Below are positions 1,865-38,596 of a DNA stretch of 64,000 nucleotides, one piece after another. The notes under the pieces are model-generated. The model saw only the letters and a program-made list of their open reading frames with translations, searched no databases and had not been told where the DNA came from. Each line of letters opens with the position of its first letter. Position 1 is the first letter of the stretch. This DNA comes from Patescibacteria group bacterium (GTDB lineage: Bacteria > Patescibacteriota > Patescibacteriia > UBA1558 > GWA2-36-10), in the NCBI GenBank assembly GCA_041662585.1, contig JBAZSG010000004.1:18173-82172 (forward strand), given 5' to 3'. A program made the translations under genes and the position numbers.

Positions 1865-3640
1865 TTATCGATTGCTCTTTTTTCTATCATTTTCGGTCAA
1901 ACCTTGTTTGCGTAATCTGACATTGTGAGGTGTGACTTCTAGATATTCATCCTCAGATATTATTTCCAGTCCAGTTTCAATAGTCAATACATTAGGAGGA
2001 GTCAAGGCAATAGCCTCATCAGCTCCAGAGGAGCGCATATTGGACAATTGTTTACCTTTGATAGGATTGACCACCATATCATAGCCTTTGGCAGTATTAC
2101 CAATGACCATACCTTCATAGACCTCTATATTTGGTCCAATATATAGATCGCCTCTTTCTTGAAGATTAAAGAGTGAAAAACCAAGAGCTTTACCAGTAGC
2201 CATAGAAATCATAGAACCAACATTGCGTTTTTTAATTTCACCAGTATAAGGTCGGTATTCTAAAAAGTGTGAGCAAAGGATACCTTCGCCACGAGTATCA
2301 ACGGTAAATTCACCACGATAGCCCAGTAGTCCACGAGTCGGTATTTCAAAGATAATACGCATTTGTCCGTTTTCAGTAGTCAGTTTGGTGACAATACCTT
2401 TGCGTTTACCCATCTTTTCCATGACAATACCAGAGCTAGCTTCAGGCACATCAATAGTGACTTCTTCAAATGGTTCAAATTTTTTGCCATCTCGTTCTTC
2501 AATGATAACTTTTGGTTGAGATACTTGTAGCTCATAGCCTTCACGACGCATTTGTTCTATGAGTATGGCAGCATGCAGCTCACCACGACTATATACCTTA
2601 AAGAATTCACCAGAAAAATCAATCTTCATACCCACATTTACTTCTAGTTCTTTGGCTAGTCTTTCTTTGATTTGTTTAGAAGTGACAAACTTACCTTCTC
2701 GTCCAGCAAAGGGAGAATTGTTTACCAAAAAGTCTAGCGATATTGTGGGTTCATCAACAGTGATAGCTGGTAGTCCTGCTTGCTCCTTATCTACACAAAG
2801 TGTTTCGCCAATATCAATATCAGAAAATCCAGCTACCATGACAATATCTCCAGCTATAGCTTCTTCTGTTTCTTGACGCTCAAGTCCTTTAAAAGTAAAG
2901 AGCTTGGTTACTCTAGCCGTACGACTAGTACCATCTATACTTTTGACTACTAGGTTAGCTCCTGTTTGTATAGTCCCTTCATACACGCGTGCTAGAGCCA
3001 TACGTCCCAAGAAATTATCATAGGCAAGGTTGAATACTTGAGCTCTTAGTGGTGCCTGACTATCAGTCTTAGCAGCTGGTACTTTTTCTAGGATTATATC
3101 AAGCAGTGGAAATATATCTTTGTCCTCATCCGTCAAATATCTTTTGGCTATACCGTTTTTGGCTATAGCATAGACGGTAGTAAAATCAAGTTGCTCATCA
3201 CTAGCGCCTAGATCCATAAACAATTCAAAAACTTGCTCATGAGCTCTGTGAGGATTGGCAGCAGGCTTATCAATTTTATTTAGTATGACAATTGGCTTAA
3301 GCCCTAGTTCCAAAGATTTTTTGAGTACAAATCTAGTCTGAGGCATAGGACCTTCTTGAGCATCTACCACTAGCAAGACACTATCAATAGAGCGCAGTAC
3401 TCGCTCTACTTCACTACCAAAGTCAGCATGACCTGGAGTATCAACAATATTTATCTTGGTATCTTTGTAAAAGACTGAAGCATTTTTGGAGTAAATAGTA
3501 ATACCACGCTCTTGTTCAAGCGTGTTGGAATCCATAGTACTCTCATCTGAGACCATACCAGTTTGTTTTAGTATAGAGTCAGTCAGCGCTGTTTTACCAT
3601 GGTCTACGTGAGCTATAATTGCGATATTTCTTATTTGCAT
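1865..3640 (-). CDS. typA: Translational GTPase BipA/TypA
   Basis: G1 AHVDHGKT, G3 DTPGHADF, EF-G-like domain layout in a ~590-aa product. The ORF track starts at 3676 (TTG); the internal ATG at 3640 (MQIRNIAIIAHVDHGKT) is the more likely start. Confidence 0.9.
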   Translation of the reverse strand: MQIRNIAIIAHVDHGKTALTDSILKQTGMVSDESTMDSNTLEQERGITIYSKNASVFYKDTKINIVDTPGHADFGSEVERVLRSIDSVLLVVDAQEGPMPQTRFVLKKSLELGLKPIVILNKIDKPAANPHRAHEQVFELFMDLGASDEQLDFTTVYAIAKNGIAKRYLTDEDKDIFPLLDIILEKVPAAKTDSQAPLRAQVFNLAYDNFLGRMALARVYEGTIQTGANLVVKSIDGTSRTARVTKLFTFKGLERQETEEAIAGDIVMVAGFSDIDIGETLCVDKEQAGLPAITVDEPTISLDFLVNNSPFAGREGKFVTSKQIKERLAKELEVNVGMKIDFSGEFFKVYSRGELHAAILIEQMRREGYELQVSQPKVIIEERDGKKFEPFEEVTIDVPEASSGIVMEKMGKRKGIVTKLTTENGQMRIIFEIPTRGLLGYRGEFTVDTRGEGILCSHFLEYRPYTGEIKKRNVGSMISMATGKALGFSLFNLQERGDLYIGPNIEVYEGMVIGNTAKGYDMVVNPIKGKQLSNMRSSGADEAIALTPPNVLTIETGLEIISEDEYLEVTPHNVRLRKQGLTENDRKKSNR

Positions 3641-3750
3641 GAGGCAAAGAGTAACAGGAACAGTGATTTGTGTCAAGGTTTTTAGGGGGTTTCTTGAAAA
3701 ATAAGGTTAAATAGGTTAAGCTAAATTATAGGTTATATAAGTATAAAAAT

Positions 3751-5377: not shown

Positions 5378-6235
5378 ATGTTTGAAGCTTTTCATATATA
5401 TAAATATATGGGTGATTTAGATGAATACACATTAAACATCTATACTGATGGCTCAGGTAAATGGCATCCAATGAGAGGAGGTGTTGGAGTTGTATTTGTG
5501 TTTCCAGAAATATGTAAACGAGATTTGATATTAAAAGAATTACAAAGATATTCGGGTGCAAATATTGCCCAGATGGAATTACAAGCTTGTTTAGTTGGGC
5601 TAAAAGAGATATTAAAGTTTAATGATTTGGAAGGTGTCCAGGCTATTACCTTTTGGGTGGATCGTCAAGAAATCCCTGATAATTATACAAAAGCTATTTA
5701 TGTTTGGCCAAATTCTAAACCACCGTGGTACAGATCTAATGGTGCCCCTGTAATGAATGCTCAGCTTTGGAAAGACCTAGTTAGAGAAATGAATAAGGTA
5801 TATAATAATTTTCATATTAGAGTGACATTTAAATGGATAAAAGGACATGATGGGCATGAATTTAATTCTATAGCTAATAGGTTGGCAAAGTCATCAGCCG
5901 ATAAACCGGTTCAAAAGCCTATTATGAAAATATCGGAAGTTAATGTTAGAAAAAAATTATTTGATAATAAAGTAAAAAGAGGTTCTGTTAAGATGAATGG
6001 TCAAAAGATAATTATCAGGATAACTACGGGAGAATTATTGCCTCAGAAAATATGGAAGTATCAATATGAAGTTTTGTCTGAAAAAAGTCAATTTTATAAA
6101 CTTTCAGATATAATTTATTTTTCAGAAAATTTAAGAGCAGGACATGTGTTTGAAATAACTTGTAATAAAAATCAAAATTTTCCACAAATATCAAAAATTA
6201 TAAGAGAACTAGATAAAGAGTTATATAAAAAATAG
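5378..6235 (+). CDS. RNase HI-domain protein (N-terminal ~165 aa) with a ~115-aa C-terminal extension of unknown function
   Basis: RNase H type-1 signatures: IYTDGSG...GGVGVV (catalytic Asp), ELQA (Glu), WVDRQ (Asp), FKWIKGHDGHEFNSIANRLA (His; final Asp replaced by Asn). Starts 6 nt after tRNA-Leu. Confidence 0.6.
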   Translation: MFEAFHIYKYMGDLDEYTLNIYTDGSGKWHPMRGGVGVVFVFPEICKRDLILKELQRYSGANIAQMELQACLVGLKEILKFNDLEGVQAITFWVDRQEIPDNYTKAIYVWPNSKPPWYRSNGAPVMNAQLWKDLVREMNKVYNNFHIRVTFKWIKGHDGHEFNSIANRLAKSSADKPVQKPIMKISEVNVRKKLFDNKVKRGSVKMNGQKIIIRITTGELLPQKIWKYQYEVLSEKSQFYKLSDIIYFSENLRAGHVFEITCNKNQNFPQISKIIRELDKELYKK

Positions 6236-6271
6236 CTTGATTTTTTAGCTAGAAAATGGGAAAATGTAGCT

Positions 6272-7057
6272 ATGATTAAACCATATTATGTTAAGCCAAA
6301 GTTCAGATTATATCATGCCAACGCGCTTGATTTTTTAGCCAATGTAAAACCAAATTCAGTAGATATGATTTTTGCTGATCCCCCATATAATTTATCAAAC
6401 GGAGGCTTCACTGTGCATGCTGGAAAAATGACGTCTGTAAACAAAGGAGATTGGGATAAAAGTAAAGGATTTGAAGGGGATTATGATTTTCATCATAAAT
6501 GGCTCGAAGCTTGTAAGAGAGTCTTAAAACCAAACGGTACACTTTGGGTAAGTGGAACTTATCATTCTATATATCAGTGTGGACACGCTTTACAGTCTTT
6601 GGGCTATCACATATTAAATGATATAAGCTGGTTCAAACCAAACGCTTCACCAAATTTAAGCTGTCGTTTTTTCACGGCTAGTCACGAAACTTTAATTTGG
6701 GCTAGGAAAGATAAAAAGGGCAAACACACCTTTAATTATAAAGAAATGAAAGGTGGAAATTGGCATGAACAGGATTTGATTAAAAAACCTGATAAACAAA
6801 TGAGGTCTGTTTGGGGCATTATGACGCCTAGAAATGGAGAAAAAAAATTTGGTAAGCATCCTACTCAGAAGCCATTAGATTTATTAAATAGGATAGTACT
6901 AGCCAGTACCAATAAAGGGGATTTAATTTTAGATCCATTTGCTGGTAGTTCTACAACAGGTATATCTGCTTATGCATTAGGTAGAAAGTTTATTGGTATT
7001 GATATGGATAAGAAGTTTTTAGATTTATCTATTAAGAGGTTTGAAGATATAAAATAA
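6272..7057 (+). CDS. Beta-class N6-adenine (or N4-cytosine) DNA methyltransferase, DpnA/HinfI-like
   Basis: Motif IV DMIFADPPYN precedes motif I LDPFAGSSTTG (beta-class order); 261 aa; immediately upstream of a restriction endonuclease gene. Confidence 0.8.
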   Translation: MIKPYYVKPKFRLYHANALDFLANVKPNSVDMIFADPPYNLSNGGFTVHAGKMTSVNKGDWDKSKGFEGDYDFHHKWLEACKRVLKPNGTLWVSGTYHSIYQCGHALQSLGYHILNDISWFKPNASPNLSCRFFTASHETLIWARKDKKGKHTFNYKEMKGGNWHEQDLIKKPDKQMRSVWGIMTPRNGEKKFGKHPTQKPLDLLNRIVLASTNKGDLILDPFAGSSTTGISAYALGRKFIGIDMDKKFLDLSIKRFEDIK

Positions 7058-7061
7058 TAAT

Positions 7062-7943
7062 ATGGAAAAAGATTTTGATAAATTAATAAATACTTTTCAG
7101 GAATCAATTTTTACTTGGGGTTATTTTACTGATTTTGAAAAGGTTAATAAAAATATTAGCAAAATAGAAAGAAAATTAAATTTACTTAATTCTTTAATTG
7201 GCAAAGACAATATTGAAAATGAGTTTATAGATTTAATTAAGGAATATCCAGAGGTAAAAGAAGTACTGCCAATTTTAATTGCAGTTAGAAAAGACAAGTT
7301 AAAAGAATTGTCTATTATTTCTGATATTATTAATTTAGATCATGATAAAAAATATGATATTTTTTATGAAGGCTTAAACGAAGAAAATGCAAAAGAATTA
7401 AAAATATTTTTTAATGAAAGTGGACTAAAAGACATTTTTAAAAATAAGAATATAAAAAATGTGGTTGATTATGTTTTTGGTATAGAAGTAGGAATGGATA
7501 CTAACGCTAGAAAAAACAGAACAGGAGATTTAATGGAAGATTTAGTAGAAAAATTTTTAGAGATATTTTGTAAAGATAAAAATTTTGTTTTTATTGAGCA
7601 AGCTACTAAGGTTAAAATTAAAAAAGCGTTTAATTATGATTTAGAAATTGATAAGAATAATAGAAGATTTGATTTTGCTTTATTTAATAAAGAAGAAAAA
7701 AAGCTATATTTAATGGAAGTTAATTATTATGGAGGAGGAGGTTCTAAATTAAAAGCAACTGCTGGTGAATATCAAAAATTAAATGATTTTTTAAAAAATC
7801 AAAATATAACATTTATTTGGGTTACAGACGGCAAAGGCTGGTTAACATCAAGAAATTCTTTAAAAGAGACTTTTAAGCATAATGATTATGTGATTAATTT
7901 GGAAATGCTTAAAAATGGAAGCTTAAAAACTATAGTAAAGTAA
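7062..7943 (+). CDS. Type II restriction endonuclease, DpnII/MboI family (predicted GATC specificity)
   Basis: 293 aa; blocks DYVFGIEVGMDTNARKNRTGDLMEDLV and EVNYYGGGGSKLKATA resemble what I recall of DpnII-family conserved regions; gene is 4 nt downstream of the DPPY methyltransferase. Specificity is inference. Confidence 0.6.
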   Translation: MEKDFDKLINTFQESIFTWGYFTDFEKVNKNISKIERKLNLLNSLIGKDNIENEFIDLIKEYPEVKEVLPILIAVRKDKLKELSIISDIINLDHDKKYDIFYEGLNEENAKELKIFFNESGLKDIFKNKNIKNVVDYVFGIEVGMDTNARKNRTGDLMEDLVEKFLEIFCKDKNFVFIEQATKVKIKKAFNYDLEIDKNNRRFDFALFNKEEKKLYLMEVNYYGGGGSKLKATAGEYQKLNDFLKNQNITFIWVTDGKGWLTSRNSLKETFKHNDYVINLEMLKNGSLKTIVK

Positions 7944-7947
7944 TAAT

Positions 7948-9591
7948 ATGGAAAAATTACTTAGTAAAGAAATAGTTAGTTTTCTAATAAATAAAGAAAT
8001 AGATATTGCTAAAAAAATTCGTAAAGACAATAGAGTTTCTAAGAGTTCGAACGAAGCTTATGCCTTTATAATATCAGTATTAAGAAAAACAATTTCTGAG
8101 TCTATAACAGAAAGTAAGTTAAAAGAAATTATATTTGATGGTAAGGATGAATGTGGTTTTGATGTTATTAATATAACACCAAGAAGGATAGAGATTTATG
8201 ATTTTAAAGATACTAATTCATCATTTTCTGAACATGAAGTCTATCCGTTTTTAGAAAAAATATTAAATTTTATATTTAAAGAAGAGACACTTCCTAGTAA
8301 GATGTCTTTTTTAGTAAAAAATAGAATTAAACAAATCATAAAAATAATAGATTCTAAAAAAATAAAAGTGAGAATATATTTTGTCAGAAATGGTTTTAAT
8401 AATCCAGAAGATTGGCTTATAGCTGGCGCTAATAAAAAAATTAAGAAAGAAAATATAGAAATAAAGTATATTAATCAAAAGGATATAATTTCTGATGTTT
8501 ATGAAAATAATCAAGTGCAGGATTTAGAATTTAATTTTAATGTTGATAAGAATAATTTAGAAGATTATTTCTTATATAAACATAGTAAAATTTTAATAAC
8601 AAGAGTCAATATAAAATATTTATTAAAAGGGTTAGTTAAGGAGTCTAATTTAAAAAATTATAATTTATACCATGATAATGTGAGAGGATTTTTAGGTAAA
8701 AAAGAACCTTCCAAGGGGATGCTAGTTACAATCAAAGATTATAAAAAAGATTTTCACCTTTTTCATAACGGAATAACTTTAGCTTGTCAAAAAATTAAAA
8801 ATGTTAGAGTGCTGGGGGGCAGTTTTGCTGTAACTAATCCACAAGTTTTAAATGGTTGTCAAACTTTAGAAACTTTGTATGAAAAATATTTAGATAATCT
8901 AGATGATAAATTATTAGAGGAGGCTAGTATATTGTGTCGTTTTTTTGTATTAGATTCTAAAAAAGCATTAAAAGTATGTCAATCTTCTAATACTCAAAAT
9001 AAAATTGATTCGTGGGAATTAAGGTCTAATGATAAGGAGCAAAAATTAATTGAGTATTATTTAAATAATACTTTAAAACAAAACTTTGAGTATAAAAGAA
9101 AAAGCGGAAAAAGCAAAAGTGGTAATGTATCTTTACCAGAGTTAGGCCAATGGTTGTATGCAGCAATTTTTGAAAAACCAGCTGAAGCCAAGAATAAGAA
9201 AACAGAAATTTTTCAAATAGATATTGATAAATCAATTTATGAACAAATATATCAAACATCAAAAGTAAAACCAGTAGATTTGATTAGGATTTGTGAAATA
9301 GGAGTTTTTTTGAAAAAGGCTAAAAAAGAGAAAGAGGTTATTAAGAGAACGGAGATCAAGGGTCTAGATAAGGAGACAGAGTTATCTTTAATTCGTAGTG
9401 CAGATTTTCATATACTTTCATCTTTTTACTATACAAAAAATAAATTGAATGACGAAAATTTACAAGCTTTAGTTAATAAAATATATAAGGTAGTTAAGAA
9501 AATTCAAAAAGAAAAAGAAGGTGACTATGATATAAAGAGAATTTTTACTCAAGATTTAACAACCTGGAGTAAAATAAAGAAAATTTTATAA
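7948..9591 (+). CDS. AIPR-family abortive-infection protein (phage resistance)
   Basis: 547 aa; central FHNGITLACQ...VTNPQVLNGCQTLETL block matches the AIPR family as I recall it; located directly after the R-M pair. Confidence 0.55.
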   Translation: MEKLLSKEIVSFLINKEIDIAKKIRKDNRVSKSSNEAYAFIISVLRKTISESITESKLKEIIFDGKDECGFDVINITPRRIEIYDFKDTNSSFSEHEVYPFLEKILNFIFKEETLPSKMSFLVKNRIKQIIKIIDSKKIKVRIYFVRNGFNNPEDWLIAGANKKIKKENIEIKYINQKDIISDVYENNQVQDLEFNFNVDKNNLEDYFLYKHSKILITRVNIKYLLKGLVKESNLKNYNLYHDNVRGFLGKKEPSKGMLVTIKDYKKDFHLFHNGITLACQKIKNVRVLGGSFAVTNPQVLNGCQTLETLYEKYLDNLDDKLLEEASILCRFFVLDSKKALKVCQSSNTQNKIDSWELRSNDKEQKLIEYYLNNTLKQNFEYKRKSGKSKSGNVSLPELGQWLYAAIFEKPAEAKNKKTEIFQIDIDKSIYEQIYQTSKVKPVDLIRICEIGVFLKKAKKEKEVIKRTEIKGLDKETELSLIRSADFHILSSFYYTKNKLNDENLQALVNKIYKVVKKIQKEKEGDYDIKRIFTQDLTTWSKIKKIL

Positions 9592-9619
9592 AATAAAGCA
9601 CTGAAATCAAACCAAGCTT

Positions 9620-9678
9620 AAATCAAAAAACTAAGTAATGTATTAACCCCCGCGAAAGCGGGGGTTTTTAAAAAGACA
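9620..9678 (+). repeat. 57-bp direct repeat, copy 1 (contains a Rho-independent terminator hairpin)
   Basis: aaatcaaaaaactaagTaatgtattaAcccccgcgaaagcgggggttttTaaaaagaca; near-identical to 10337..10393. Confidence 0.8.
9647..9670 (+). terminator. Rho-independent terminator (CCCCCGC-GAAA-GCGGGGG + T5) after the AIPR gene
   Basis: 7-bp GC stem, GNRA tetraloop, T-run, seen directly. Confidence 0.8.
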
Positions 9679-9770: not shown

Positions 9771-10325
9771 ATGAAAAAAGTACAGCAAATAAAAAATTTA
9801 ATTAAAAATGAATGTGCCAAAGGGCCAATAGATGATTGGTTTTACTCAACATACTTATTGGGTGTAGAAAAATTTGCCAAATGGCTACTAGCTAGACTAC
9901 CAAAAGCAAACAAAGAAGTAGTCATGCTAGGAGTTTGGCTTCATGATTTACAGAGGATAAAAGGCATCAAAGGCAATCATCAAGAAGTGGGCGCTAAGGA
10001 AGCCGAAAAAGTAATGATAAAATTTGCTTATGATAATAAAACAATTAATCAAGTAAAAAATATAATCCTTAGTCATTCTTGTAGTAGTAAAAAGCCAAAT
10101 ACTTTGGAAGGAAAGATTTTGGCTAGTGCCGATGCCATGTCTCATTATCATAATGATTTTTTCTTACAAATTGCTGTAACTGGTCAAAGAAATTTAGAAG
10201 AATATAAAAAATGGGTATTAGAAAAATTAAATAGAAATTATAATGTAAAAATTTGTTTTCCTTTTGCCAAAAAATCTATAAAGGCAAGGCATGATTTATT
10301 TAAAAAGGTTTTTACCATGAAGTAG
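9771..10325 (+). CDS. Hypothetical protein, weak HD-phosphohydrolase-like motifs
   Basis: 184 aa; WLHDLQR (HD dyad), LSHSC, SADAMSHY present but no upstream motif-I His found; bracketed by the 57-bp direct repeats. Confidence 0.3.
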   Translation: MKKVQQIKNLIKNECAKGPIDDWFYSTYLLGVEKFAKWLLARLPKANKEVVMLGVWLHDLQRIKGIKGNHQEVGAKEAEKVMIKFAYDNKTINQVKNIILSHSCSSKKPNTLEGKILASADAMSHYHNDFFLQIAVTGQRNLEEYKKWVLEKLNRNYNVKICFPFAKKSIKARHDLFKKVFTMK

Positions 10326-10336
10326 TAAATAGATTT

Positions 10337-10393
10337 AAATCAAAAAACTAAGCAATGTATTACCCCCGCGAAAGCGGGGGTTTTAAAAAAGAC
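10337..10393 (+). repeat. 57-bp direct repeat, copy 2 (with terminator hairpin)
   Basis: aaatcaaaaaactaagCaatgtattacccccgcgaaagcgggggttttaaaaaagaca; followed by a second hairpin cacccga...tcgggtg (10393..10414). Confidence 0.8.
10363..10384 (+). terminator. Rho-independent terminator (second copy of the CCCCCGC-GAAA-GCGGGGG hairpin)
   Basis: Same stem-loop plus T-run. Confidence 0.75.
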
Positions 10394-10927: not shown

Positions 10928-10943
10928 ACTTAAAAATAAAATT

Positions 10944-11417
10944 ATGAAAGTAAAACCAATAAAACTATCAGCAGCTATACTAATGTCTTTAGCCGCTGGA
11001 GCTATAGGCTCAGCCTTTACTTTTACCGGCATAGATTCTTGGTATCAATATCTCAACAAACCAAGCTTCAATCCACCTTCTTGGATATTTGGTCCAGTCT
11101 GGACCACACTATATATTTTGATGGGTATAGCTTTGTATTTGATTTGGCAAGAAGGACTTAAAAAAGCCTTTGTTAAAAACTCTTTTATATTGTTTATAGT
11201 CAATCTAGTTTTAAATTCTCTCTGGTCTATTACTTTCTTTGGTTTACAAAATCCAGCTTTGGCATTTTTGGTGATTGTCTTGCTCTGGATTACTATCTTG
11301 GTACTTATCATTCGTTTCTATAGGATAAACAAACTAGCATCTTATCTACTGATACCATATCTATTATGGGTTAGTTTTGCTAGTGTGTTAAATTTTAGTA
11401 TTTGGCAGTTGAATTAA
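10944..11417 (+). CDS. tspO: TspO/MBR family tryptophan-rich membrane protein, paralog 1
   Basis: 157 aa; five TM helices, Trp-rich, FNPPSWIFGPVWTTLYILMGIALYLIW signature. Confidence 0.8.
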   Translation: MKVKPIKLSAAILMSLAAGAIGSAFTFTGIDSWYQYLNKPSFNPPSWIFGPVWTTLYILMGIALYLIWQEGLKKAFVKNSFILFIVNLVLNSLWSITFFGLQNPALAFLVIVLLWITILVLIIRFYRINKLASYLLIPYLLWVSFASVLNFSIWQLN

Positions 11418-11452
11418 TAATTATACTAATAATCATAGATAAAATGCAGCAA

Positions 11453-11606
11453 TAAAATAGCCTAAAGTATAGGGTTTTTATGTATTTTTATTAAAAATGC
11501 AGCAATTCGCTTGAAAAAATGACGCAATGAAATAGCTTAAAATATGGGGTTTTTATATATTTTTATTAAAAATGACGCAATTCGCTTGAAAAAATGACGC
11601 AATGAT
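11453..11606 (+). repeat. Two tandem ~77-bp direct repeats upstream of the Fic-family gene (possible operator or promoter array)
   Basis: Unit aaatagcYtaaaRtatRgggtttttatRtatttttattaaaaatgMMgcaattcgcttgaaaaaatgacgcaatg present twice at ~90% identity. Contains five copies of an AATGNNGCAAT-like motif (aatgcagcaat / aatgacgcaat). Confidence 0.8.
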
Positions 11607-11620
11607 GATAAAGTATACTT

Positions 11621-12658
11621 ATGAATAAAAGACAGAAACAAATTATAGAATTTGCTAGGAAAAATGATTCTTTTCAAAATAAAGATTTAGTTATTTTTTT
11701 TGACGATAAATATTCTAGAGAAACAATAACTAGAGATTTATCTTTTTTGTGTAAGCAGAATTTTTTGCGTAAAAGCGGTGCTGGAGCGTTTGTAACTTAT
11801 TCTTTGTCTGAAGTTTATGGAATTTTAGAGAAGGTTAATATCAAAAAATATTTTGATATTCCATACTTAAAAAGAGAAGTAAGGGAAAGTTTTAATTTTG
11901 AAATACTAGATGTCTTGGAGAAGGATATTTTTACAGCTGAGGAAAAAACAAAACTAGAAAATTTACAAAAAGATTTTATTGGCAATTTCTCAAAATATGA
12001 TAGTCAAACTCTTATTAACAAAGAATTTGAAAGAATAATGATTGAATTTTCTTGGAAATCTTCAGTAATTGAAGGCAACACTTATTCACTTTTAGGTACT
12101 GAAGCTTTGATTAAGAATAATGTGATAGGAGAAGGCAAGACAGATAAAGAAACTCAAATGATTTTGAATCATAAGGATGCTTTTAATGAAGCTATTCAGA
12201 ATAAAGAAAGATTTAAAAAATTACATGTTTCTGATATTGAATATATTCATTCAGTTTTAACTAAAAAACTCGGAATTTCTAAAAATATAAGAAACGGAGC
12301 AGTTGGAGTCACTGGTACAAAGTATAAGCCTCTAGATAATGAGTATCAGATCAAAGAAGTGATGAAAAAAATGGTTGATCTCATTAATAAAAAAGAATCT
12401 TTTTTTGAAAAAGCTTTTTTGGTATTAATTCTTATCTCTTATATACAAATTTTTGAAGATGGAAACAAAAGAACCTCTCGTATGATTTCTAATGCTATTT
12501 TATTGGCACATAACTCAATACCACTCTCTTATAGAATCGTAGATGTTGAGGAATATAAAAAAGCTGTTATATTATTTTATGAAATAAATAACGTTTCTTA
12601 TTTTAAACAGATATTTATTAATCAGTTTGAAGATGCCGTTAATAATTATTTTAAATAG
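11621..12658 (+). CDS. Fic/Doc-family protein (class II-like, N-terminal SxxxEG inhibitory motif) with a degenerate catalytic motif
   Basis: 345 aa; SSVIEGNT (S-x-x-x-E-G) upstream of IQIFEDGNKRTSR, which aligns to HPFx(D/E)GNGRxxR with His replaced by Gln and the second Gly by Lys. Confidence 0.65.
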   Translation: MNKRQKQIIEFARKNDSFQNKDLVIFFDDKYSRETITRDLSFLCKQNFLRKSGAGAFVTYSLSEVYGILEKVNIKKYFDIPYLKREVRESFNFEILDVLEKDIFTAEEKTKLENLQKDFIGNFSKYDSQTLINKEFERIMIEFSWKSSVIEGNTYSLLGTEALIKNNVIGEGKTDKETQMILNHKDAFNEAIQNKERFKKLHVSDIEYIHSVLTKKLGISKNIRNGAVGVTGTKYKPLDNEYQIKEVMKKMVDLINKKESFFEKAFLVLILISYIQIFEDGNKRTSRMISNAILLAHNSIPLSYRIVDVEEYKKAVILFYEINNVSYFKQIFINQFEDAVNNYFK

Positions 12659-12712
12659 TGTCTATAGATAAAGTATAGACAAGATCATATCTTTTAATTA
12701 GTGATAACTTAA

Positions 12713-12739
12713 AAACTACTCTAGTGAGTAGTTTTTTGA
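12713..12739 (+). terminator. Rho-independent terminator hairpin X (AAAACTACTC-tagt-GAGTAGTTTT + T-run), copy 1
   Basis: Perfect 10-bp stem; a near-identical copy lies at 17114..17140. Confidence 0.75.
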
Positions 12740-12751
12740 TATAATAACCAT

Positions 12752-13197
12752 ATGAACAAACTATGTCCTATAACAAAACCATATAAGACAGCTAAGCTAA
12801 AGGTATCTAAATTACACACTCTTTATTATGAGCAAGTAGGTAATCCACAAGGAGTGCCTCTGGTATATTTACTATGAGTAAATGGGAATTAGATTGGTTG
12901 CATAATGATAAGGCTAAGATGTTTTATCCTGATGCTTGGCAAGTATATTCTGCTGGTCTAAAGAAAAATCAAACAAGTAATTTGATAGAGGTATTTTATA
13001 AGAAAGTATTTTCAAAAGTTATAATCCAAGGACGTTATGATATGATTTGTCCACCTATTACTGCTTGGAAGCTTCATGAGACTTGGACAAAGGCAGATTT
13101 TGAGATGATAGAAGCTTCAGGGCATCATTCTAGTGAAAAGAATAATATAGATGTTATTATAAAATATACTAATAAGATGTTGAGATATAAAATTTAA
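12752..13197 (+). pseudogene. pip: Proline iminopeptidase (pip) remnant: N-terminal 41 codons and C-terminal ~107 codons joined with a frameshift; ~190 internal codons deleted
   Basis: 12752..12877 encodes MNKLCPITKPYKTAKLKVSKLHTLYYEQVGNPQGVPLVYLL*, the start of the Pip N-terminal signature, but it stops before the GGPG motif. 12874..13197 (other frame) encodes IQGRYDMICPPITAWKLHETWTKADFEMIEASGHHS, a Pip C-terminal signature. Confidence 0.6.
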
Positions 13198-16200: not shown

Positions 16201-16623
16201 CCTCGCCAAATGTCAAATTTTGAAAATAGTCAGGAAATAGATATTTATTTATGGGATGATAAGCAAGGCTCCGAGTTATTTCTTTATTCTTTTGTAAGAT
16301 TTGGGGACTTATCTAGGATTACTAAAAATACATTTTCAAGTAATGATTCTATAGGTACATGGCAATTACCTTTTGCGAATAGGCAATCTTCAATGACTCT
16401 ACCAAGTATGTATGTTCAGCCAATGTGTTCAGATGGTACAGCCTATAATAAGTGCAATGATAGTGCTCAATATTGTGATGAAGGTCGGCTTATATCACGT
16501 TGTGATTTATGTAATAAAGGTTGTTTAGATGGTTATGATTGTATATCAGGCCAATGTTGTCAGAAAATAGAAGGTCAATATGAGTGTGATATAGCCACAG
16601 AGCAGTTTGATTTAAAATATTAA
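13207..16623 (+). CDS. Secreted, membrane-anchored subtilisin-like (S8) serine protease with a Ca-binding Asp-rich insert, FG-GAP/VCBS beta-propeller repeats and a Cys-rich C-terminus
   Basis: 1138 aa; N-terminal TM/signal; Asp (DINAPEAWD), His (HGMGVHGL) and Ser (GGTSGATPVVAG) catalytic motifs; DDDGDGLIDEDRLDNEPGD insert; repeated GDINGDGxDEI, FDINNDGTNEILF, DDLDGDGINDILY; C-terminal CSDGTAYNKCNDSAQYCDEGRLISRCDLCNKGC. Confidence 0.8.
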   Translation: MYKTQTLTKTSVSIKEKIAIGVGLLAISFIGFNFIFSLFGEVLEPVKKIVISKPQTIVNNNVYSIYPVFEKKYVEDEIIIKIADKVSKETIESVIMTDLTNLSPKQINFSLSETDKESVLLKPVFSHFKNKELGFKYDLDKFYYIKNLSTDEDQLIKDLQKTNNYEYVGRLVEPQTFFTPNDTFYNKQWFLNNTGQSDLINYVPPAISGFDINAPEAWDTTQGSSDIIIAFNELTQPNHPDLVNNMWVNDDAPGDKNSDGCPGVCGIDDDGDGLIDEDRLDNEPGDMGYLNDLVNDDDENGYPDDIHGWNFTTNSGDVYSEYAQHGMGVHGLLAAQGNNSLGVSGVCPQCKVMSIGSEWGAESIIAAPVYAVDNGARILSMSYLTTDDPALHAAVQYAYEAGLLMFGASGNSNISTEALYPTFYSEVLAITAADQFGWKAPWSVFGPKTELMAPGSEILSTTVNDQYAYFGGTSGATPVVAGIAGLVFSANPLLTAHDVKNILRTTAQPYKSWFYAGVGMVDTEAAVQLAQYSNTPRVEINDPLQSTVIANSDTSYNIRGSANGDKFVSYDLVYGRGMFPSDWTYIVQSSNNQVADNVLGIFDVSSVGAGYYTVELRVTSSDGIEYTDKIVLYKQHAFDQSWPIELSAGGLKESLGIFDILDDNNPEFLVADYDSNNIEIYSINGSLVTSTDIDSAVINSPTFVVQGDVTCDGNKDTIVVTKKNWPSIPLIYIYDKSGNKIREFEVPGITILSYNFSNVALGDINGDGCDEIVIKTAESILVVDGNGINLGSKDYSLLQMGSPAIFDINNDGTNEILFSSNEGIDCLTYSNSALSMCPGQWPYYIDGYPGVATIVVDLDSDNVFEIVNFAFSIQILELNGTLINDIQIPRLIPTMGNNETFITGFAIGDINNDQQYEIIFTRDSRFGNVMNGEEQNIYAYTLQGALIDGWPQKSEASGNSKVAIRIDDLDGDGINDILYEQNNRIFAFHGDGSVVNSFPRQMSNFENSQEIDIYLWDDKQGSELFLYSFVRFGDLSRITKNTFSSNDSIGTWQLPFANRQSSMTLPSMYVQPMCSDGTAYNKCNDSAQYCDEGRLISRCDLCNKGCLDGYDCISGQCCQKIEGQYECDIATEQFDLKY

Positions 16624-16632
16624 ATTAAAAAT

Positions 16633-17100
16633 ATGAAAATAATAAAACTATCAGCAGCTATACTAATGTCTCTAGCCGCTGGAGCTATAGGTTCAGCCTT
16701 TACTTTTACAGGAATAGATTCTTGGTATCAATATCTCAACAAACCAAGCTTCAATCCACCTTCTTGGATATTTGGTCCAGTCTGGACCACACTATATATT
16801 TTGATGGGTATAGCTTTGTATTTGATTTGGCAAGAAGGACTTAAAAAAGCCTTTGTCAAAAACTCTTTTATATTGTTTGTAGTCAATCTAGTCTTAAATT
16901 CTCTCTGGTCTATTGCTTTCTTTGGTTTACAAAATCCAGCTTTGGCATTTTTGGTGATTGTCTTACTATGGGTTAGTATATTAGTACTTATCATTCGTTT
17001 CTATAGGATAAATAAACTAGCTTCTTATCTACTAATACCATATCTACTATGGGTTAGTTTTGCTAGTGTTTTAAACTTTAGTATTTGGCAGTTGAATTAA
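16633..17100 (+). CDS. tspO: TspO/MBR family protein, paralog 2 (~96% nucleotide identity to 10944..11417)
   Basis: 155 aa, near-identical protein; the DNA repeat runs from ~16643 to the stop. Confidence 0.8.
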   Translation: MKIIKLSAAILMSLAAGAIGSAFTFTGIDSWYQYLNKPSFNPPSWIFGPVWTTLYILMGIALYLIWQEGLKKAFVKNSFILFVVNLVLNSLWSIAFFGLQNPALAFLVIVLLWVSILVLIIRFYRINKLASYLLIPYLLWVSFASVLNFSIWQLN

Positions 17101-17113
17101 AGGTATAGAAGAT

Positions 17114-17140
17114 AAAAACTACTCTAGCGAGTAGTTTTTT
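17114..17140 (+). terminator. Terminator hairpin X, copy 2 (AAAACTACTC-tagc-GAGTAGTTTT + T-run)
   Basis: Same stem-loop as 12713..12739. Confidence 0.75.
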
Positions 17141-24166: not shown

Positions 24167-24700
24167 GTGAATTCACATAATGAGGAAAATTTGAAAAGTC
24201 TTATATTGTTGAGCATAGAGGGCAGGGAAAGTTCTTTTCAACAATTATATGAACATTTGTCAGATCAATTGTTTAGATTTGTATTTGCTCGTTGTAGCAA
24301 CAGAGAAGATACGCTGGACTTATTACAAGATATATTTGTTGATTTGTGGAAAGCTTTGCCAAAATTTAAATATTCTACCGATGCTGAATTTTATAGTTTT
24401 GTCTTTACGATTACTCGTCGTAAGCTCAGTAAATATTATAGGTTTAAAAATAAGTCTGTAGTCTTTGACGAAAAATATATCAGAGAAAATTATGAAATAC
24501 AGCCAGAGGATTATTGGCTACTTGAAAAGATAATCCCGAGGCTCAAAGATAAATATCGTCAGGTTTTAGAATTACGCTATTTTAGTGATTTCACTTTTGC
24601 TCAAATTGCAAAATTTTTGAACATCAAAGAATCTACAGCCAAGGTACAGCATCATCGAGCTATCAAACAACTCAGCGATATAATCAAAAAATATGAATAG
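24167..24700 (+). CDS. ECF-type sigma-70 family RNA polymerase sigma factor
   Basis: Region 2 (LLQDIFVDLWKAL) and region 4 HTH (YRQVLELRYFSDFTFAQIAKFLNIKESTAKVQHHRAIKQL); GTG start in track. Confidence 0.75.
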   Translation: MNSHNEENLKSLILLSIEGRESSFQQLYEHLSDQLFRFVFARCSNREDTLDLLQDIFVDLWKALPKFKYSTDAEFYSFVFTITRRKLSKYYRFKNKSVVFDEKYIRENYEIQPEDYWLLEKIIPRLKDKYRQVLELRYFSDFTFAQIAKFLNIKESTAKVQHHRAIKQLSDIIKKYE

Positions 24701-25550
24701 TAATATAAACAATAAACTAGAAAAAATAAAAACTAAATCTTTGTCATCAACAGAAAAAGATACTCTGTGGCAAGGTATTAGTCATGATATAAATCAAGAA
24801 AATAATTTATCATTTTTTAGTTTGTTGTTTAGTAGAAAAGTGGTGTTCAATATAGCTATAGCTATATTGGTAATTTTTGGAGGATTTATCGCTACTGTCC
24901 AAGCAGCCGATAGAGCCAAACCAGGTGACAAATTGTACGCTCTAGATAGAGCAGTAGAAAATATACAAATTACTTTTGCTTCTCCAGCCAATAAAGACAA
25001 ACTCAAAATAAAATTTTCTCAGGAAAGAGCTAGTGAAATACAAGGTGTAATTAAAAAAAATATTGATGAAGATTTTGAATTTGAAAAAGACAAAAATAAA
25101 AATTCCAATGTCGGGAATAATGTCGGGAATATAGAAGAATCTAGTCATGATGCCTTAAAATATATAATTAAAGTAAGGAATGAATTGTTTGAAAAAAACA
25201 ATCAAATAGCTGTAGATGATTTGGATATTTTGCTAGAGAGTGTACAGGCTAGTCTAGCTACATTGCCAGACAATATGAAAGTAGATGTAGAAATAGAAGA
25301 AGAAAACAACAAAGCTGAATTTAGGATTAATTTTAAAGATGAAGATGGTCAATTTAAGATAAAATATAAATCAGCCGAAAATAATAAAAATAATCGTAAT
25401 ACTAATGATAAAGAAGAAGAAGATGAAGATGAAAATGAGGATATTGAATTGAAAAATCAAAAACTTGATAATATTAATAATGACGAAGAAGAAGATGAAG
25501 ATGAAAATGAGGATGATGACAAAGATGATAAAGAAGATGAAGACAGATAA
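24693..25550 (+). CDS. Single-pass membrane protein, putative anti-sigma factor, with a long acidic repeat tail
   Basis: Start overlaps the sigma factor stop (ATGAATAG); one TM (VVFNIAIAILVIFGGFIATV); tail with duplicated EEEDEDENED blocks and NVGNNVGN. Confidence 0.45.
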   Translation: MNSNINNKLEKIKTKSLSSTEKDTLWQGISHDINQENNLSFFSLLFSRKVVFNIAIAILVIFGGFIATVQAADRAKPGDKLYALDRAVENIQITFASPANKDKLKIKFSQERASEIQGVIKKNIDEDFEFEKDKNKNSNVGNNVGNIEESSHDALKYIIKVRNELFEKNNQIAVDDLDILLESVQASLATLPDNMKVDVEIEEENNKAEFRINFKDEDGQFKIKYKSAENNKNNRNTNDKEEEDEDENEDIELKNQKLDNINNDEEEDEDENEDDDKDDKEDEDR

Positions 25551-36394: not shown

Positions 36395-38596
36395 TTATAT
36401 TTTTTTTGAGAAATCACACTCTTCACATTTGATAGTAGTTTTATTGGCTTGATAAAGCAGTTTGCTACAATCAGGACATTTTTCACCAGTAGGTTTGCCC
36501 CAGAGCAAGTGTTCACATTTTGGATAATTGTTACAACCATAAAATATCTTTCCTCTCTTACTACGTTTGGTGACCATTTCTCCTTCCTTACACAAGCCAC
36601 ATTTTACACCGGTACCACTATCTTTGGATTTGGTAGTTTTGCATTTTGGATAATCAGAACAAGCAATAAATTTTCCAAAGCGTCCAGTCTTGACTATCAT
36701 ATCTTTACCACAAGTAGGACAAGGTTCGTCAATTTTTTCTCTTTCTTCTGGTTTACCATCATCACCAATTGGTTTGGTATTTTTACAATCAGGATAGTTT
36801 GAACAAGCCAAAAATTTTCCAAAGCGTCCAAGTTTGATTACCATTGGACTATCACATTTATCACAAACTTCTTCAGTGGCAGTTTCAGTGATTTCTTTTT
36901 TGTCTAATTCTTTTTCTTTTTCCATTAGATTTTTTTCAAAAGGTTTATAAAAAGCACTTATAATAGGTTGCCATTCTTTTTTACCTTCAGCTATTTCATC
37001 CAAGTCATTTTCCATTTGAGCGGTGAAGTCATAAGATACTATATCATTAAAATGTTCCATCAACAATTTGTTTACTATCTCACCAATTTCAGTTGGTGCC
37101 AAACGTTTTTCTTCTTTGGTGACATATTGTCTATCTATTATAGTAGCAATCGTAGGAGCATAAGTAGATGGACGGCCGATTCCCAGTGCTTCCATAGCTT
37201 TGACTAGTCCGGCTTCTGAATACCTGGCTGGAGGAGTAGTAAAGTGTTGTATAGCCTCTAAGGTGTCTAAATTTAATATATCATCTTTGGCTATAGCTGG
37301 GAGCTCATTTTCATCATCGTTGTTTTGATAAATGGCTTTCCAACCAGCAAATTTGGTGACAGTGCCCAGTGCTTTTAAAATCCAATTAGTACCTTTAGCG
37401 TCAATAGCTACAGTAGTAGTTTCGGTCACAGCTTCAGACATTTGAGAAGCTACAGCTCTTTGCCAAATGAGCGTATATATTTTAAATTGTTTGGGATCTA
37501 GATAAGTTTTGATAGACTCAGGGTCATAGCTCACTTCAGTTGGCCTGATAGCTTCGTGAGCTTCTTGAGTAAACTTGGCTTTCTTTTTGAAAACACGACC
37601 ACCAGTTTGCATATATTCTTTGCCCAGTTTTTCATTTATATAATTTTCTGTAGCTTTTACAAAACTATCAGACAGATTTAGAGAGTCAGTTCTCATATAG
37701 GTAATCAAACCGTGACTACCTTTTGAGCCAAGTTTGATACCTTCATATAGCTGTTGAGCTAGCATCATGGTTTGTTTGGCGCTATAGCCAAAACGACGGT
37801 TAGCATCTTGTTGAAGAGTGGAAGTAGTAAATGGAGCTAGAGGAGCTTTTTTGTGCTCGGTAGCATTTACCTCACTTACTACTAGCTTGCTGGCTTTTAT
37901 ATCTTCTAGAGCTTGCTTGGCTTTTGCTTCATCAATATCAAATTTTTTGAGTACATTATCTTTTTCTTTGTGCAAAGAGATATCAAATTTTGGAGAATTA
38001 TCTTTACTAGCCTGTCCCTCAACCGTCCAATATTCTTCAGTCTTAAATTTTCGGCGTTCTTCTTCACGCTCTACTATCAATCTGACAGCTACAGATTGTA
38101 CGCGTCCAGCAGATAGCCCACGAGTGACTTTTTTCCATAAGAGTGGGGATAGTTTATAGCCGACTAGTCTATCCAATATTCTACGAGCTTGTTGAGCATG
38201 AAAAAGATTGATATCCAAATTTCTAGGATTATCAAGTGCTTCCATTATAGCTGTCTTAGTGATTTCATGAAAAGCAATTCTTTTTTGTTTGGCTTTATCT
38301 ACATTTAATAGTTGTTGGAGATGCCAAGAAATAGCCTCTCCTTCACGATCTTCATCAGTTGCAAAATAGACCATCTCAGCATCTTTGGCCAATTTTTTTA
38401 GTTTAGTGACTTGTTTTTTGGCTTTAAGAGGTACAGTATAGGTTGGTTCAAAATTACTTTCTGTATCAACTCCTAGTTTACTTTTTGGTAAATCTCGGAC
38501 ATGTCCAAAAGAAGACTCCACGACATATTCTTTGCCGAGGAAACCTTTGATGGTTTTTGCTTTGGTAGGAGACTCAACTATTACTAATTTGGACAT
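36395..38596 (-). CDS. topA: DNA topoisomerase I with C-terminal zinc ribbons
   Basis: TOPRIM start MSKLVIVESPTKAKTI, active-site region, multiple CxxC...CxxC ribbons. Confidence 0.9.
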   Translation of the reverse strand: MSKLVIVESPTKAKTIKGFLGKEYVVESSFGHVRDLPKSKLGVDTESNFEPTYTVPLKAKKQVTKLKKLAKDAEMVYFATDEDREGEAISWHLQQLLNVDKAKQKRIAFHEITKTAIMEALDNPRNLDINLFHAQQARRILDRLVGYKLSPLLWKKVTRGLSAGRVQSVAVRLIVEREEERRKFKTEEYWTVEGQASKDNSPKFDISLHKEKDNVLKKFDIDEAKAKQALEDIKASKLVVSEVNATEHKKAPLAPFTTSTLQQDANRRFGYSAKQTMMLAQQLYEGIKLGSKGSHGLITYMRTDSLNLSDSFVKATENYINEKLGKEYMQTGGRVFKKKAKFTQEAHEAIRPTEVSYDPESIKTYLDPKQFKIYTLIWQRAVASQMSEAVTETTTVAIDAKGTNWILKALGTVTKFAGWKAIYQNNDDENELPAIAKDDILNLDTLEAIQHFTTPPARYSEAGLVKAMEALGIGRPSTYAPTIATIIDRQYVTKEEKRLAPTEIGEIVNKLLMEHFNDIVSYDFTAQMENDLDEIAEGKKEWQPIISAFYKPFEKNLMEKEKELDKKEITETATEEVCDKCDSPMVIKLGRFGKFLACSNYPDCKNTKPIGDDGKPEEREKIDEPCPTCGKDMIVKTGRFGKFIACSDYPKCKTTKSKDSGTGVKCGLCKEGEMVTKRSKRGKIFYGCNNYPKCEHLLWGKPTGEKCPDCSKLLYQANKTTIKCEECDFSKKI

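Follow-up and report, generated by a model that had tools for sequence, protein, structure and literature searches.

Fic enzymes are characterised by a catalytic His that acts as the general base, and in class II members an inhibitory Glu supplied in cis contacts the second signature Arg and blocks the gamma-phosphate site. Among described systems, CccR of Yersinia pseudotuberculosis is a fusion of a Fic domain to a helix-turn-helix (HTH) that represses its own promoter via boxes near -35/-10, and its authors liken this self-repression to toxin-antitoxin autoregulation (PMC9755527). Khater & Mohanty (2015) grouped 45 sequences into a 'clade D2' with the consensus Qx[F/Y]x[D/E][G/V]NKR, argued that the variant is retained by selection and may not be catalytically dead, and did not assign a function to it (PMC4454073). 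Here we describe a Fic-family gene in a stretch of 64,000 nt from a Patescibacteria contig, AT-rich at 27-39% GC, which we call the window. Its product carries an N-terminal winged helix-turn-helix (wHTH) and a Fic core with Gln in place of the catalytic His, and the gene lies behind an array of boxes in a DNA segment inserted downstream of a TspO gene. We read the segment as an autorepressed, inserted, His-less cassette of class II type and give this reading a probability of roughly 0.55.

The gene and the parts of its product are located as follows.

11621-12658, + strand: wHTH-Fic(Q/K) gene, an intact open reading frame (ORF) of 345 aa
11621-11815, + strand: N-terminal winged helix-turn-helix, aa 1-65, predicted from the HTH_DeoR match, the secondary structure of the AlphaFold2 (AF2) model (pLDDT >90) and helix/box covariation
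12059-12076, + strand: inhibitory-helix motif S147-S-V-I-E151-G152 (class II alpha-inh), aligned with TVAIEG of FICD
12290-12331, + strand: flap (beta-hairpin) region R224-P237, from alignment to FICD and conservation
12446-12481, + strand: Fic signature Q276-I-F-E-D-G-N-K283-R-T-S-R287, from HMMER alignment to FICD and Fic-1

Pfam placed a Fic domain (PF02661) at aa 201-294 (E 3e-12, 47.7 bits against a cut-off of 24), in agreement with a first-pass annotation of this DNA that had called a Fic-family protein. That annotation began its feature at 11453, which lies inside the upstream repeat; the gene starts at 11621. A protein database search returned a protein from a metagenome-assembled genome of the Patescibacteria group with 100% identity. 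The N-terminal HTH_DeoR match (aa 4-56, E 2.6e-4) was right at its threshold (21.1 bits against 21), and the DeoR-HTH matches in NCBIfam were weak. It is the HTH part alone that resembles the DeoR family, whose C-terminal sugar-phosphate sensor domain is here replaced by Fic. An AF2 model built from an alignment of 43 diverse homologs reached a pLDDT of 95.4 and a pTM of 0.90. Its residues 3-62 run helix-helix-helix-strand-strand, a winged helix, and are followed by an all-helical body; the predicted recognition helix lies at about aa 33-45, ETITRDLSFLCKQ. Foldseek matched the model best to FICD/HYPE (probability 1.00, E 1e-9, TM 0.61, ~242 columns) and further to C. elegans Fic-1, BT_2513, SoFic, CdFic and Coxiella Fic2, which are class II Fic proteins.

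The signature reads QIFEDGNKRTSR, with Gln at the position of the catalytic His and a Doc-like Lys at that of the second Gly. In the HMMER alignment to Fic-1/FICD, 'yiqifedgnkrtsr' fell on 'lvhpftdgngrtar', which places the signature exactly on the H-P-F-x-D-G-N-G-R-T-x-R column, and 'ssviegnt' fell on the 'tvaiegnt' column. Both substitutions, and the retention of a class II inhibitory motif (SSVIEG, aa 147-152), had been proposed in the first-pass annotation and are upheld by the alignment. No second, His-containing canonical Fic motif, which the annotation had named as the observation that would overturn its call, was present anywhere in the 345-aa protein, and no Fic paralog was found within the window. 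We assign R224-P237 to the flap from the FICD alignment. By the scheme of Engel et al. 2012 the protein belongs to class II, since an (S/T)xxxE(G/N) helix lies in the same chain N-terminal to the core, whereas Q276 and K283 depart from the AMP-transferase signature HxFx(D/E)GNGRxxR. Because the general-base His is absent, canonical AMPylation of hydroxyl groups would not be expected from established Fic biochemistry, and on this basis its loss is probable; the annotation had predicted an AMPylation-dead or substrate-switched Fic.

Searches covering 5.8 billion proteins gave at least 7983 database matches; the gene is an ordinary member of this very large family, which databases label only 'Fic family protein'. 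The best 120 homologs were all ~345 aa long, 75-87% identical and spread over many Patescibacteria lineages (Moranbacteria, Falkowbacteria, Komeilibacteria, Kerfeldbacteria and Paceibacterota among them), and 118 of the 120 contained Q.FEDGNKR. An exhaustive search of 50%-identity representatives yielded 186 clusters at E<=1e-30 and 2260 at E<=1e-3. Q.F.D[GA]NKR was present in 113 of the 150 best representatives, and nearly all the rest gave no match to the regular expression, most of them being fragments. At least 503 species-level genomes encode a relative; among the best 80 of them Bacteroidota dominate, followed by Patescibacteria and single genomes from other phyla. Two homologs (L011 and L012), from Absconditabacterales and Gracilibacteria, appear broken under genetic code 11. 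Since these lineages read UGA as Gly (code 25), both genes are probably intact.

When 43 full-length members (29-87% identity) were aligned, 25 positions proved invariant. They include W145, S147, S148, E151 and G152 in the inhibitory helix; N183 and H184; H210, R224 and P237 in the flap region; and Y274, Q276, F278, D280, G281, N282, K283, R284, R287 and N291. Of these, E151 and R287 would be the counterparts of the class II Glu-Arg pair. V228, G232 and Y235 of the flap were at least 90% conserved. Against close homologs, dN/dS was 0.07-0.12 (about 0.08) at a dS of ~0.8-1.6. The gene is under strong purifying selection, and the exchange of His for Gln and of Gly for Lys is a family-wide signature, neither a local oddity nor decay. 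The unusual motif seen in the first-pass annotation is real. We also considered recent horizontal transfer, suggested by 80-87% protein identity across classes of the Candidate Phyla Radiation (CPR); this is weakened by the dS values, which indicate that the high identity mostly reflects constraint.

The sequence QIFEDGNKR fits the clade D2 consensus, and relatives carry QPFxDGNKR and QPFEDVNKR; membership was judged by the published consensus. The Gln motif itself is accordingly not new, having been noted in silico in 2015 (PMC4454073). A proteobacterial relative of 465 aa on plasmid 2 of Aromatoleum aromaticum EbN1 (L089, 3986-5380) has SSRLEG and QPFEDVNKR, the V option of the consensus. 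It has an extra C-terminal extension of ~100 aa and adjoins a partial integrase on a conjugative plasmid.

The DNA upstream of the gene contains the following elements.

11438-11605, + strand: predicted operator array, 2.2 tandem 75-bp units with five boxes, from Tandem Repeats Finder and a repeat search
11441-11453, + strand: box 0, AAAATGCAGCAAT, an extra copy in this lineage only
11494-11506, + strand: box 1, AAAATGCAGCAAT, from the six-locus upstream alignment
11516-11528, + strand: box 2, AAAATGACGCAAT, from the six-locus upstream alignment
11569-11581, + strand: box 3, AAAATGACGCAAT, abutting the -35 hexamer
11591-11603, + strand: box 4, AAAATGACGCAAT, inside the promoter spacer
11586-11614, + strand: promoter-like site TTGAAA, 17 nt, TG-n-TAAAGT, from a sigma-70-like consensus scan

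Tandem Repeats Finder reported a period of 75 with 2.2 copies at 11441-11605 (90% matches), and the two full units, 11438-11512 and 11513-11587, were 87% identical. The five motifs described in the first-pass annotation are correct, and the 77-bp period given there is not. Exact AAATG(CA/AC)GCAAT boxes stand at 11442, 11495, 11517, 11570 and 11592, all on the + strand and spaced 53-22-53-22 bp; 0.12 such boxes are expected by chance in the window, and none of 100 shuffles reached five. We aligned this region with those of five homologous loci (68-87% protein identity). All six loci have the layout box1-22-box2-53-box3-22-box4 followed by ~18 nt to the ATG, with conserved boxes and diverged spacers. 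The array of the window is this common layout plus one box and spacer, a lineage-specific duplication of the 75-bp unit. The distances of 22, 53 and 75 bp approximate 2, 5 and 7 turns of the helix, which would put all the boxes on one of its faces. Both promoter hexamers are conserved in L001, L005 and L008-L010. The -10 element and the ATG are 6 nt apart, and the ATG has no visible Shine-Dalgarno sequence, suggesting that the mRNA is probably leaderless or nearly so. What was first seen as a tandem repeat appears to be essentially a conserved operator array for the protein's own wHTH.

A survey of 78 non-redundant loci extended this architecture to the family. An exact 8-mer direct repeat at exactly 22-bp spacing occurred within 200 bp upstream of the gene in 36 of the 78 loci, compared with 1/78 downstream and 1/78 inside the gene. 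A looser test (7-nt threshold, 21-23 bp spacing) was passed by 60 of 79 loci. Box words differ among lineages of the family (ATGACGCAAT, ATGTCGCAAT and TGAGCTA), and covariation between box and predicted recognition helix extends over at least six lineages, as follows.

Recognition helix SRETITRDLSFL: box AAAATGACGCAAT
Recognition helix DRKTLQRDLKEL: box AATGTCGC(A/G)AT
Recognition helix ..T(V/I)VRDL: box ATGATAC(A/G)AT
Recognition helix TRMT..RDLEKM: box AATGTTACAT
Recognition helix SYAT.KRIL (most Bacteroidota): box TGAGCT(A/T)
Recognition helix NERTLKR.I: box CGGGACAAA

Bacteroidota members have an inverted distal pair, and their proximal box lies directly 3' of the TAnnTTTG -7 promoter element. 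When 241 million metagenome records were scanned for exact double boxes, 32 loci were found, 30 of which had the Fic gene 11-24 nt downstream (two with GTG starts, one frameshifted and a few cut by the contig end). Of the other two, one was a deletion remnant ('MNK*' followed by unrelated DNA) and one had no gene. These results indicate that double boxes are essentially confined to the Fic gene's own promoter. The boxes are co-inherited with the gene, track the recognition helix, overlap the promoter and are confined to this gene, so that autorepression by the wHTH is the simplest reading, and we regard it as likely. The Fic toxin CccR, which silences its own promoter by way of a fused HTH, offers an experimental precedent (PMC9755527).

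Several loci show the cassette in states of decay. In L132 (around 3636-3669, - strand) intact double boxes are followed by 'ATGAATAAATAA' and unrelated DNA, the gene having been deleted. L139 has a frameshifted Fic gene, and L142 has double boxes and no gene.

The first-pass annotation had suspected an insertion, and a second TspO copy in the window provided the empty site for comparison.

10932-11417, + strand: TspO/MBR copy 1, also given as 10944-11417 (Pfam TspO_MBR, E 5e-52)
11418-12710, + strand: inserted cassette of ~1.29 kb comprising the box array, the wHTH-Fic(Q) gene and a 52-nt tail, from the empty-site comparison
12659-12710, + strand: 3' tail of the cassette, 52 nt, with a weak likeness to the hsdR 5' end
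12711-12737, + strand: terminator hairpin, originally that of TspO and now 3' of the Fic gene, from RNA folding
16615-17140, + strand: TspO copy 2 (gene 16615-17100, also given as 16633-17100) with its terminator, the empty site, from comparison with copy 1

The TspO copies are ~95% identical, 5.7 kb apart and in direct orientation. The two sites are homologous up to the TspO stop codon and again from the terminator hairpin onward. The hairpin behind the Fic gene (-12.4 kcal/mol, z -3.56) was not flagged by a simple terminator scan; the one after copy 2 (17114-17140, z -3.62) differs from it by one or two mismatches. As the same hairpin directly follows the stop codon of copy 2, this copy is a natural empty site, and in copy 1 the inserted cassette separates the stop codon from the terminator, with boundaries good to about +/-20 nt. 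An exact-sequence look-up of the TspO neighbour for a related genome without the insert found none on record. The 3' tail showed ~59% identity over 29 nt to the start of hsdR in two homologous loci (L008 and L010, below), a weak likeness, and it is possibly a decayed remnant of the hsdR 5' end.

Besides the Fic cassette, the segment between the TspO copies holds a broken peptidase gene and the gene of a 1138-aa S8 peptidase. The broken gene (12752-13197) encodes a proline-iminopeptidase-like alpha/beta hydrolase in two fragments, an N-terminus of 41 aa and a C-terminus of 107 aa. The 41-aa fragment stops just before the expected HGGPG, and the gene looks like an internal deletion pseudogene.

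From these data we propose the following mechanism. The winged helix would bind the 13-bp boxes (AAAATGACGCAAT) of the array, which follow one another at 22 and 53 bp; with the two proximal boxes flanking the -35 hexamer and filling the promoter spacer, binding would shut off transcription of the gene itself. In the helical linker, the S-x-x-x-E-G inhibitory helix would block the nucleotide pocket in cis as in class II Fic proteins, and such a cis-inhibitory Glu implies a gated pocket. The Fic core, predicted to be complete but for Gln at the general-base His and the Doc-like Lys at the second Gly of the anion nest, may still bind a nucleotide or phospho-ligand together with a target; its pocket, flap and inhibitory Glu are conserved almost perfectly, which suggests as much. 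Our reading of the cassette is a single-chain toxin-antitoxin-like module of the addiction or defence type, in which the wHTH and the inhibitory helix would take the antitoxin role (autoregulation and cis-inhibition) and the Q/K Fic core would be an effector whose output is non-canonical. Its role as a toxin or in defence is the tentative part of this proposal, and we consider it rather doubtful.

The main rival is a pure transcription factor, a sensor-regulator in which the Fic core is a silent, ligand-sensing pseudoenzyme that tunes DNA binding by the wHTH. It would control itself and a co-transcribed downstream gene, such as hsdR in an hsdS-fic-hsdR arrangement, like the controller (C) protein of a restriction-modification (R-M) system. 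The wHTH with its promoter-overlapping boxes and the missing catalytic His fit this explanation, and non-catalytic Fic domains have a precedent in Bartonella BepC (PMC7842960). The context of two homologs in Kuenenbacteria and Moraniibacteriota genomes (L008, 3687-8365, and L010, 3634-8384) fits as well: the wHTH-Fic(Q) gene stands within a type I R-M system, with hsdS on one side and hsdR on the other. There hsdR starts 7-9 nt after the fic stop codon, and for this reason may be transcribed from the box-controlled promoter.

The family-wide context argues otherwise. All-against-all clustering of 613 flanking ORFs from 78 loci gave no conserved partner gene, no cluster being present in more than four loci. 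The gap upstream of the Fic gene was always at least 56 bp. Tightly linked downstream genes were heterogeneous (HsdR, PAS, methyltransferases, a radical SAM enzyme, a nucleotidyltransferase and a glycosyltransferase), and in 33 of 71 loci the downstream gene was on the opposite strand. The Fic cassette is a stand-alone unit, and in most genomes a regulator of this kind would have nothing to regulate but itself, the double boxes being essentially limited to its own promoter. The invariant flap, inhibitory Glu and entire anion nest also go beyond the needs of ligand sensing. We therefore regard a pure transcription factor as possible, though it is not the account we favor. The same data qualify the toxin/immunity-like or regulatory module suggested in the first-pass annotation: its regulatory part is supported, whereas neighbor clustering produced no immunity or antitoxin partner gene.

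A second alternative, that of an active enzyme with switched chemistry, concerns the effector and would refine the autorepressed-cassette reading rather than exclude it. The Doc-like Lys would invert the nucleotide, or the acceptor (phosphate, carboxylate or water) would need no general base. Consistent with this, K283 and Q276 are invariant as a pair in an otherwise conserved pocket, and purifying selection is strong; the argument that clade D2 may not be dead (PMC4454073) points the same way. However, the fold is that of a class II Fic protein with a flap and not Doc-like, as the best structural matches were to FICD and the Doc model TIGR01550 stayed below threshold (17.0 bits against a cut-off of 38.65). 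Castro-Roa et al. (2013, as cited in PMC4454073) are said to have described the role of the Lys of Doc. In P1 Doc, a kinase, this Lys inverts the nucleotide, yet Doc still needs its His. Our literature and structure searches found neither an experimental study nor a solved structure of a Gln-type Fic member. We consider switched chemistry unlikely as it stands.

Far less probable is that the wHTH-Fic protein is the initiator or recombinase of a replicon or mobile element and the boxes are the iterons or ends of that element. As direct repeats with a 22-bp periodicity ahead of a wHTH gene, the boxes resemble plasmid iterons; moreover, the cassette is a discrete insertion accompanied by no other mobility gene, and some relatives are on plasmids or beside integrases. 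On the other hand, the boxes, which overlap the promoter, are found on a single side, and the contigs are chromosomal and long (up to 0.7 Mb). No convincing terminal inverted repeats or target-site duplication were seen around the cassette, and the Fic fold is not known to have DNA strand-transfer activity.

A tandem repeat directly upstream of a toxin-family gene could also encode a repetitive RNA antitoxin, as in ToxI-like type III toxin-antitoxin systems, or another structured RNA. This is scarcely credible here, because the region gave no Rfam match at E<=1 and folded worse than its shuffles (z +2.69), homologs conserve the 13-bp boxes and not the units, and both box orientations occur in distant members, a DNA-level feature; the locus does not classify as a type III (ToxIN-like) system. 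Finally, a decaying, non-functional Fic relic might be suspected from the lost His and from the few frameshifted or deleted relatives (L139, L132), but the intact ORF, the dN/dS of about 0.08 and the invariance of Gln and Lys over thousands of sequences down to 29% identity refute it for practical purposes.

Several observations weigh against the autorepressed, inserted cassette with a toxin-like effector. What computation shows is the anatomy, the family-wide conservation, the box architecture with its covariation, and the insertion; DNA binding, repression, toxicity and the loss of AMPylation are inferences. The sensor-regulator explains the same data without a toxin. No transposase, integrase, terminal inverted repeat or target-site duplication was found that would explain mobility. 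All boxes of the close clade are direct repeats, which is not the expected target of a symmetric Fic dimer; distant family members have dyad arrangements and boxes in both orientations. Immediate neighbors across the family are mostly housekeeping genes, with less than ~10% defence genes. Phages contributed nine weak matches in 50,697 records and no full-length match, and 2.9 M viral contigs held only about 10 close relatives. A phage origin of the cassette, which we had considered, was rejected given this near absence from phage records.

Defence-related surroundings are a matter of the close CPR clade. A family-wide association with defence islands was tried as an explanation and dropped, as only a handful of 138 immediate neighbors matched PADLOC or R-M families; a defence role is accordingly proposed for this clade and not as a family-level result. 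The neighbors of L005 are GmrSD, NERD and an MmeI-type enzyme, those of L001 a reverse transcriptase and a PD-(D/E)xK nuclease. Both loci have recognizable remnants of the hsdS 3' end upstream and of the hsdR 5' end downstream. Together with the hsdS-fic-hsdR order in L008 and L010, these remnants suggest that type I R-M operons probably carried the close CPR clade as a passenger at its origin. In the window the cassette borders a stretch of low GC content (27-31% over 4-14 kb), and a DpnII R-M system and AbiU are encoded 2-5 kb upstream.

The low-GC stretch contains a defence cluster at 5378-9591, made up of genes for an RNase H-like protein of 285 aa, an N6/N4 methylase of DpnII type, a DpnII endonuclease and an AIPR/AbiU abortive-infection protein. 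A 56-nt element with a strong GC hairpin (CCCCCGCGAAAGCGGGGG and a T-run) occurs at 9618-9673 and 10335-10390, flanking an HD-domain gene (9771-10325); it could represent a small mobile repeat or a terminator module that was duplicated. Elsewhere in the window, imperfect tandem repeats at 25380-25543 form an Asp/Glu/Asn-rich low-complexity stretch within the ORF 24693-25550, and a 103-nt direct repeat is present twice at 36629-36875 (73% identical, 144 nt apart).

Three features that the first-pass annotation lacked are the N-terminal wHTH, the family-wide extent of the Gln/Lys motif and the operator-array nature of the repeat. New here are the wHTH, the family-wide co-evolving operator architecture, and the movement of gene and operator as a 1.3-kb unit, demonstrated by the empty site within the window. 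Thousands of family members occur in two major bacterial groups, one of them the Patescibacteria with their reduced genomes; in this family Gln and Lys are fixed while the other pocket residues, the Glu and the flap have been conserved for very long. This conservation pattern points to an unrecognized Fic activity or to a nucleotide-sensing pseudoenzyme. The analysis also supplies a defined predicted operator, a predicted recognition code from six helix/box pairs and a minimal 1.3-kb cassette with its empty site. It is conceivable, though we think it improbable, that the Gln/Lys core is not dead and catalyzes or senses something that no characterized Fic does, examples being Doc-like inverted-nucleotide phosphotransfer or nucleotidyl transfer to a non-hydroxyl acceptor, and that the cassette is a new kind of single-gene, self-repressing addiction or defence module. 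If so, the module would have spread horizontally through Patescibacteria and Bacteroidota, first as a passenger of type I R-M operons.

In type I R-M operons the PrrC gene sits between hsdS and hsdR. The hsdS-fic-hsdR order of L008 and L010 is a PrrC-like embedding that concerns part of the CPR clade only, and such a context is absent in the window and in most Bacteroidota members. With Doc of phage P1 and its partner Phd the cassette shares the Lys at ..NKR and, by functional analogy, an autoregulated combination of a DNA-binding antitoxin part, an inhibitory helix and a Fido effector. Doc differs in keeping its His, in lacking the flap, in its size of about 125 aa and in its need for a separate Phd gene; with TIGR01550 below its cut-off, a flap present and no conserved neighbor, the Lys of NKR is all that is shared and the protein is not classed as a Doc toxin. 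In the same way, it does not belong to the SoFic defence system of PADLOC. That match was partial (58.7 bits, model positions 36-217 of 361), the His is absent and the wHTH is N-terminal, and the PADLOC matches to SoFic and PDC-S04 span the generic Fic core only.

The class II proteins FICD/HYPE, C. elegans Fic-1, CdFic and SoFic have the same fold, inhibitory-helix column, flap and F-x-D-G-N-x-R-x-x-R pocket. The window protein differs from them in having Gln for His, Lys for the second Gly and its own box array, and its N-terminal wHTH stands where FICD has TPR repeats, while SoFic carries a wHTH at the C-terminus. Clade D2 was described mostly as single-domain and Doc-like (PMC4454073), whereas the family reported here is far larger and has a class II fold, a flap, a wHTH and a conserved box array. 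CccR resembles the window protein in that a Fic domain is fused to a DNA-binding HTH. It differs in its canonical His (H192), AMPylation of FtsZ, Fic-then-HTH order and role as an effector of the type VI secretion system (PMC9755527). Its operator is one inverted repeat with a 26-bp spacer, in contrast to the direct-repeat box array of the window. The cassette would thus be, as predicted here, a second and independent case, after CccR, of a Fic domain fused to its own repressor domain.

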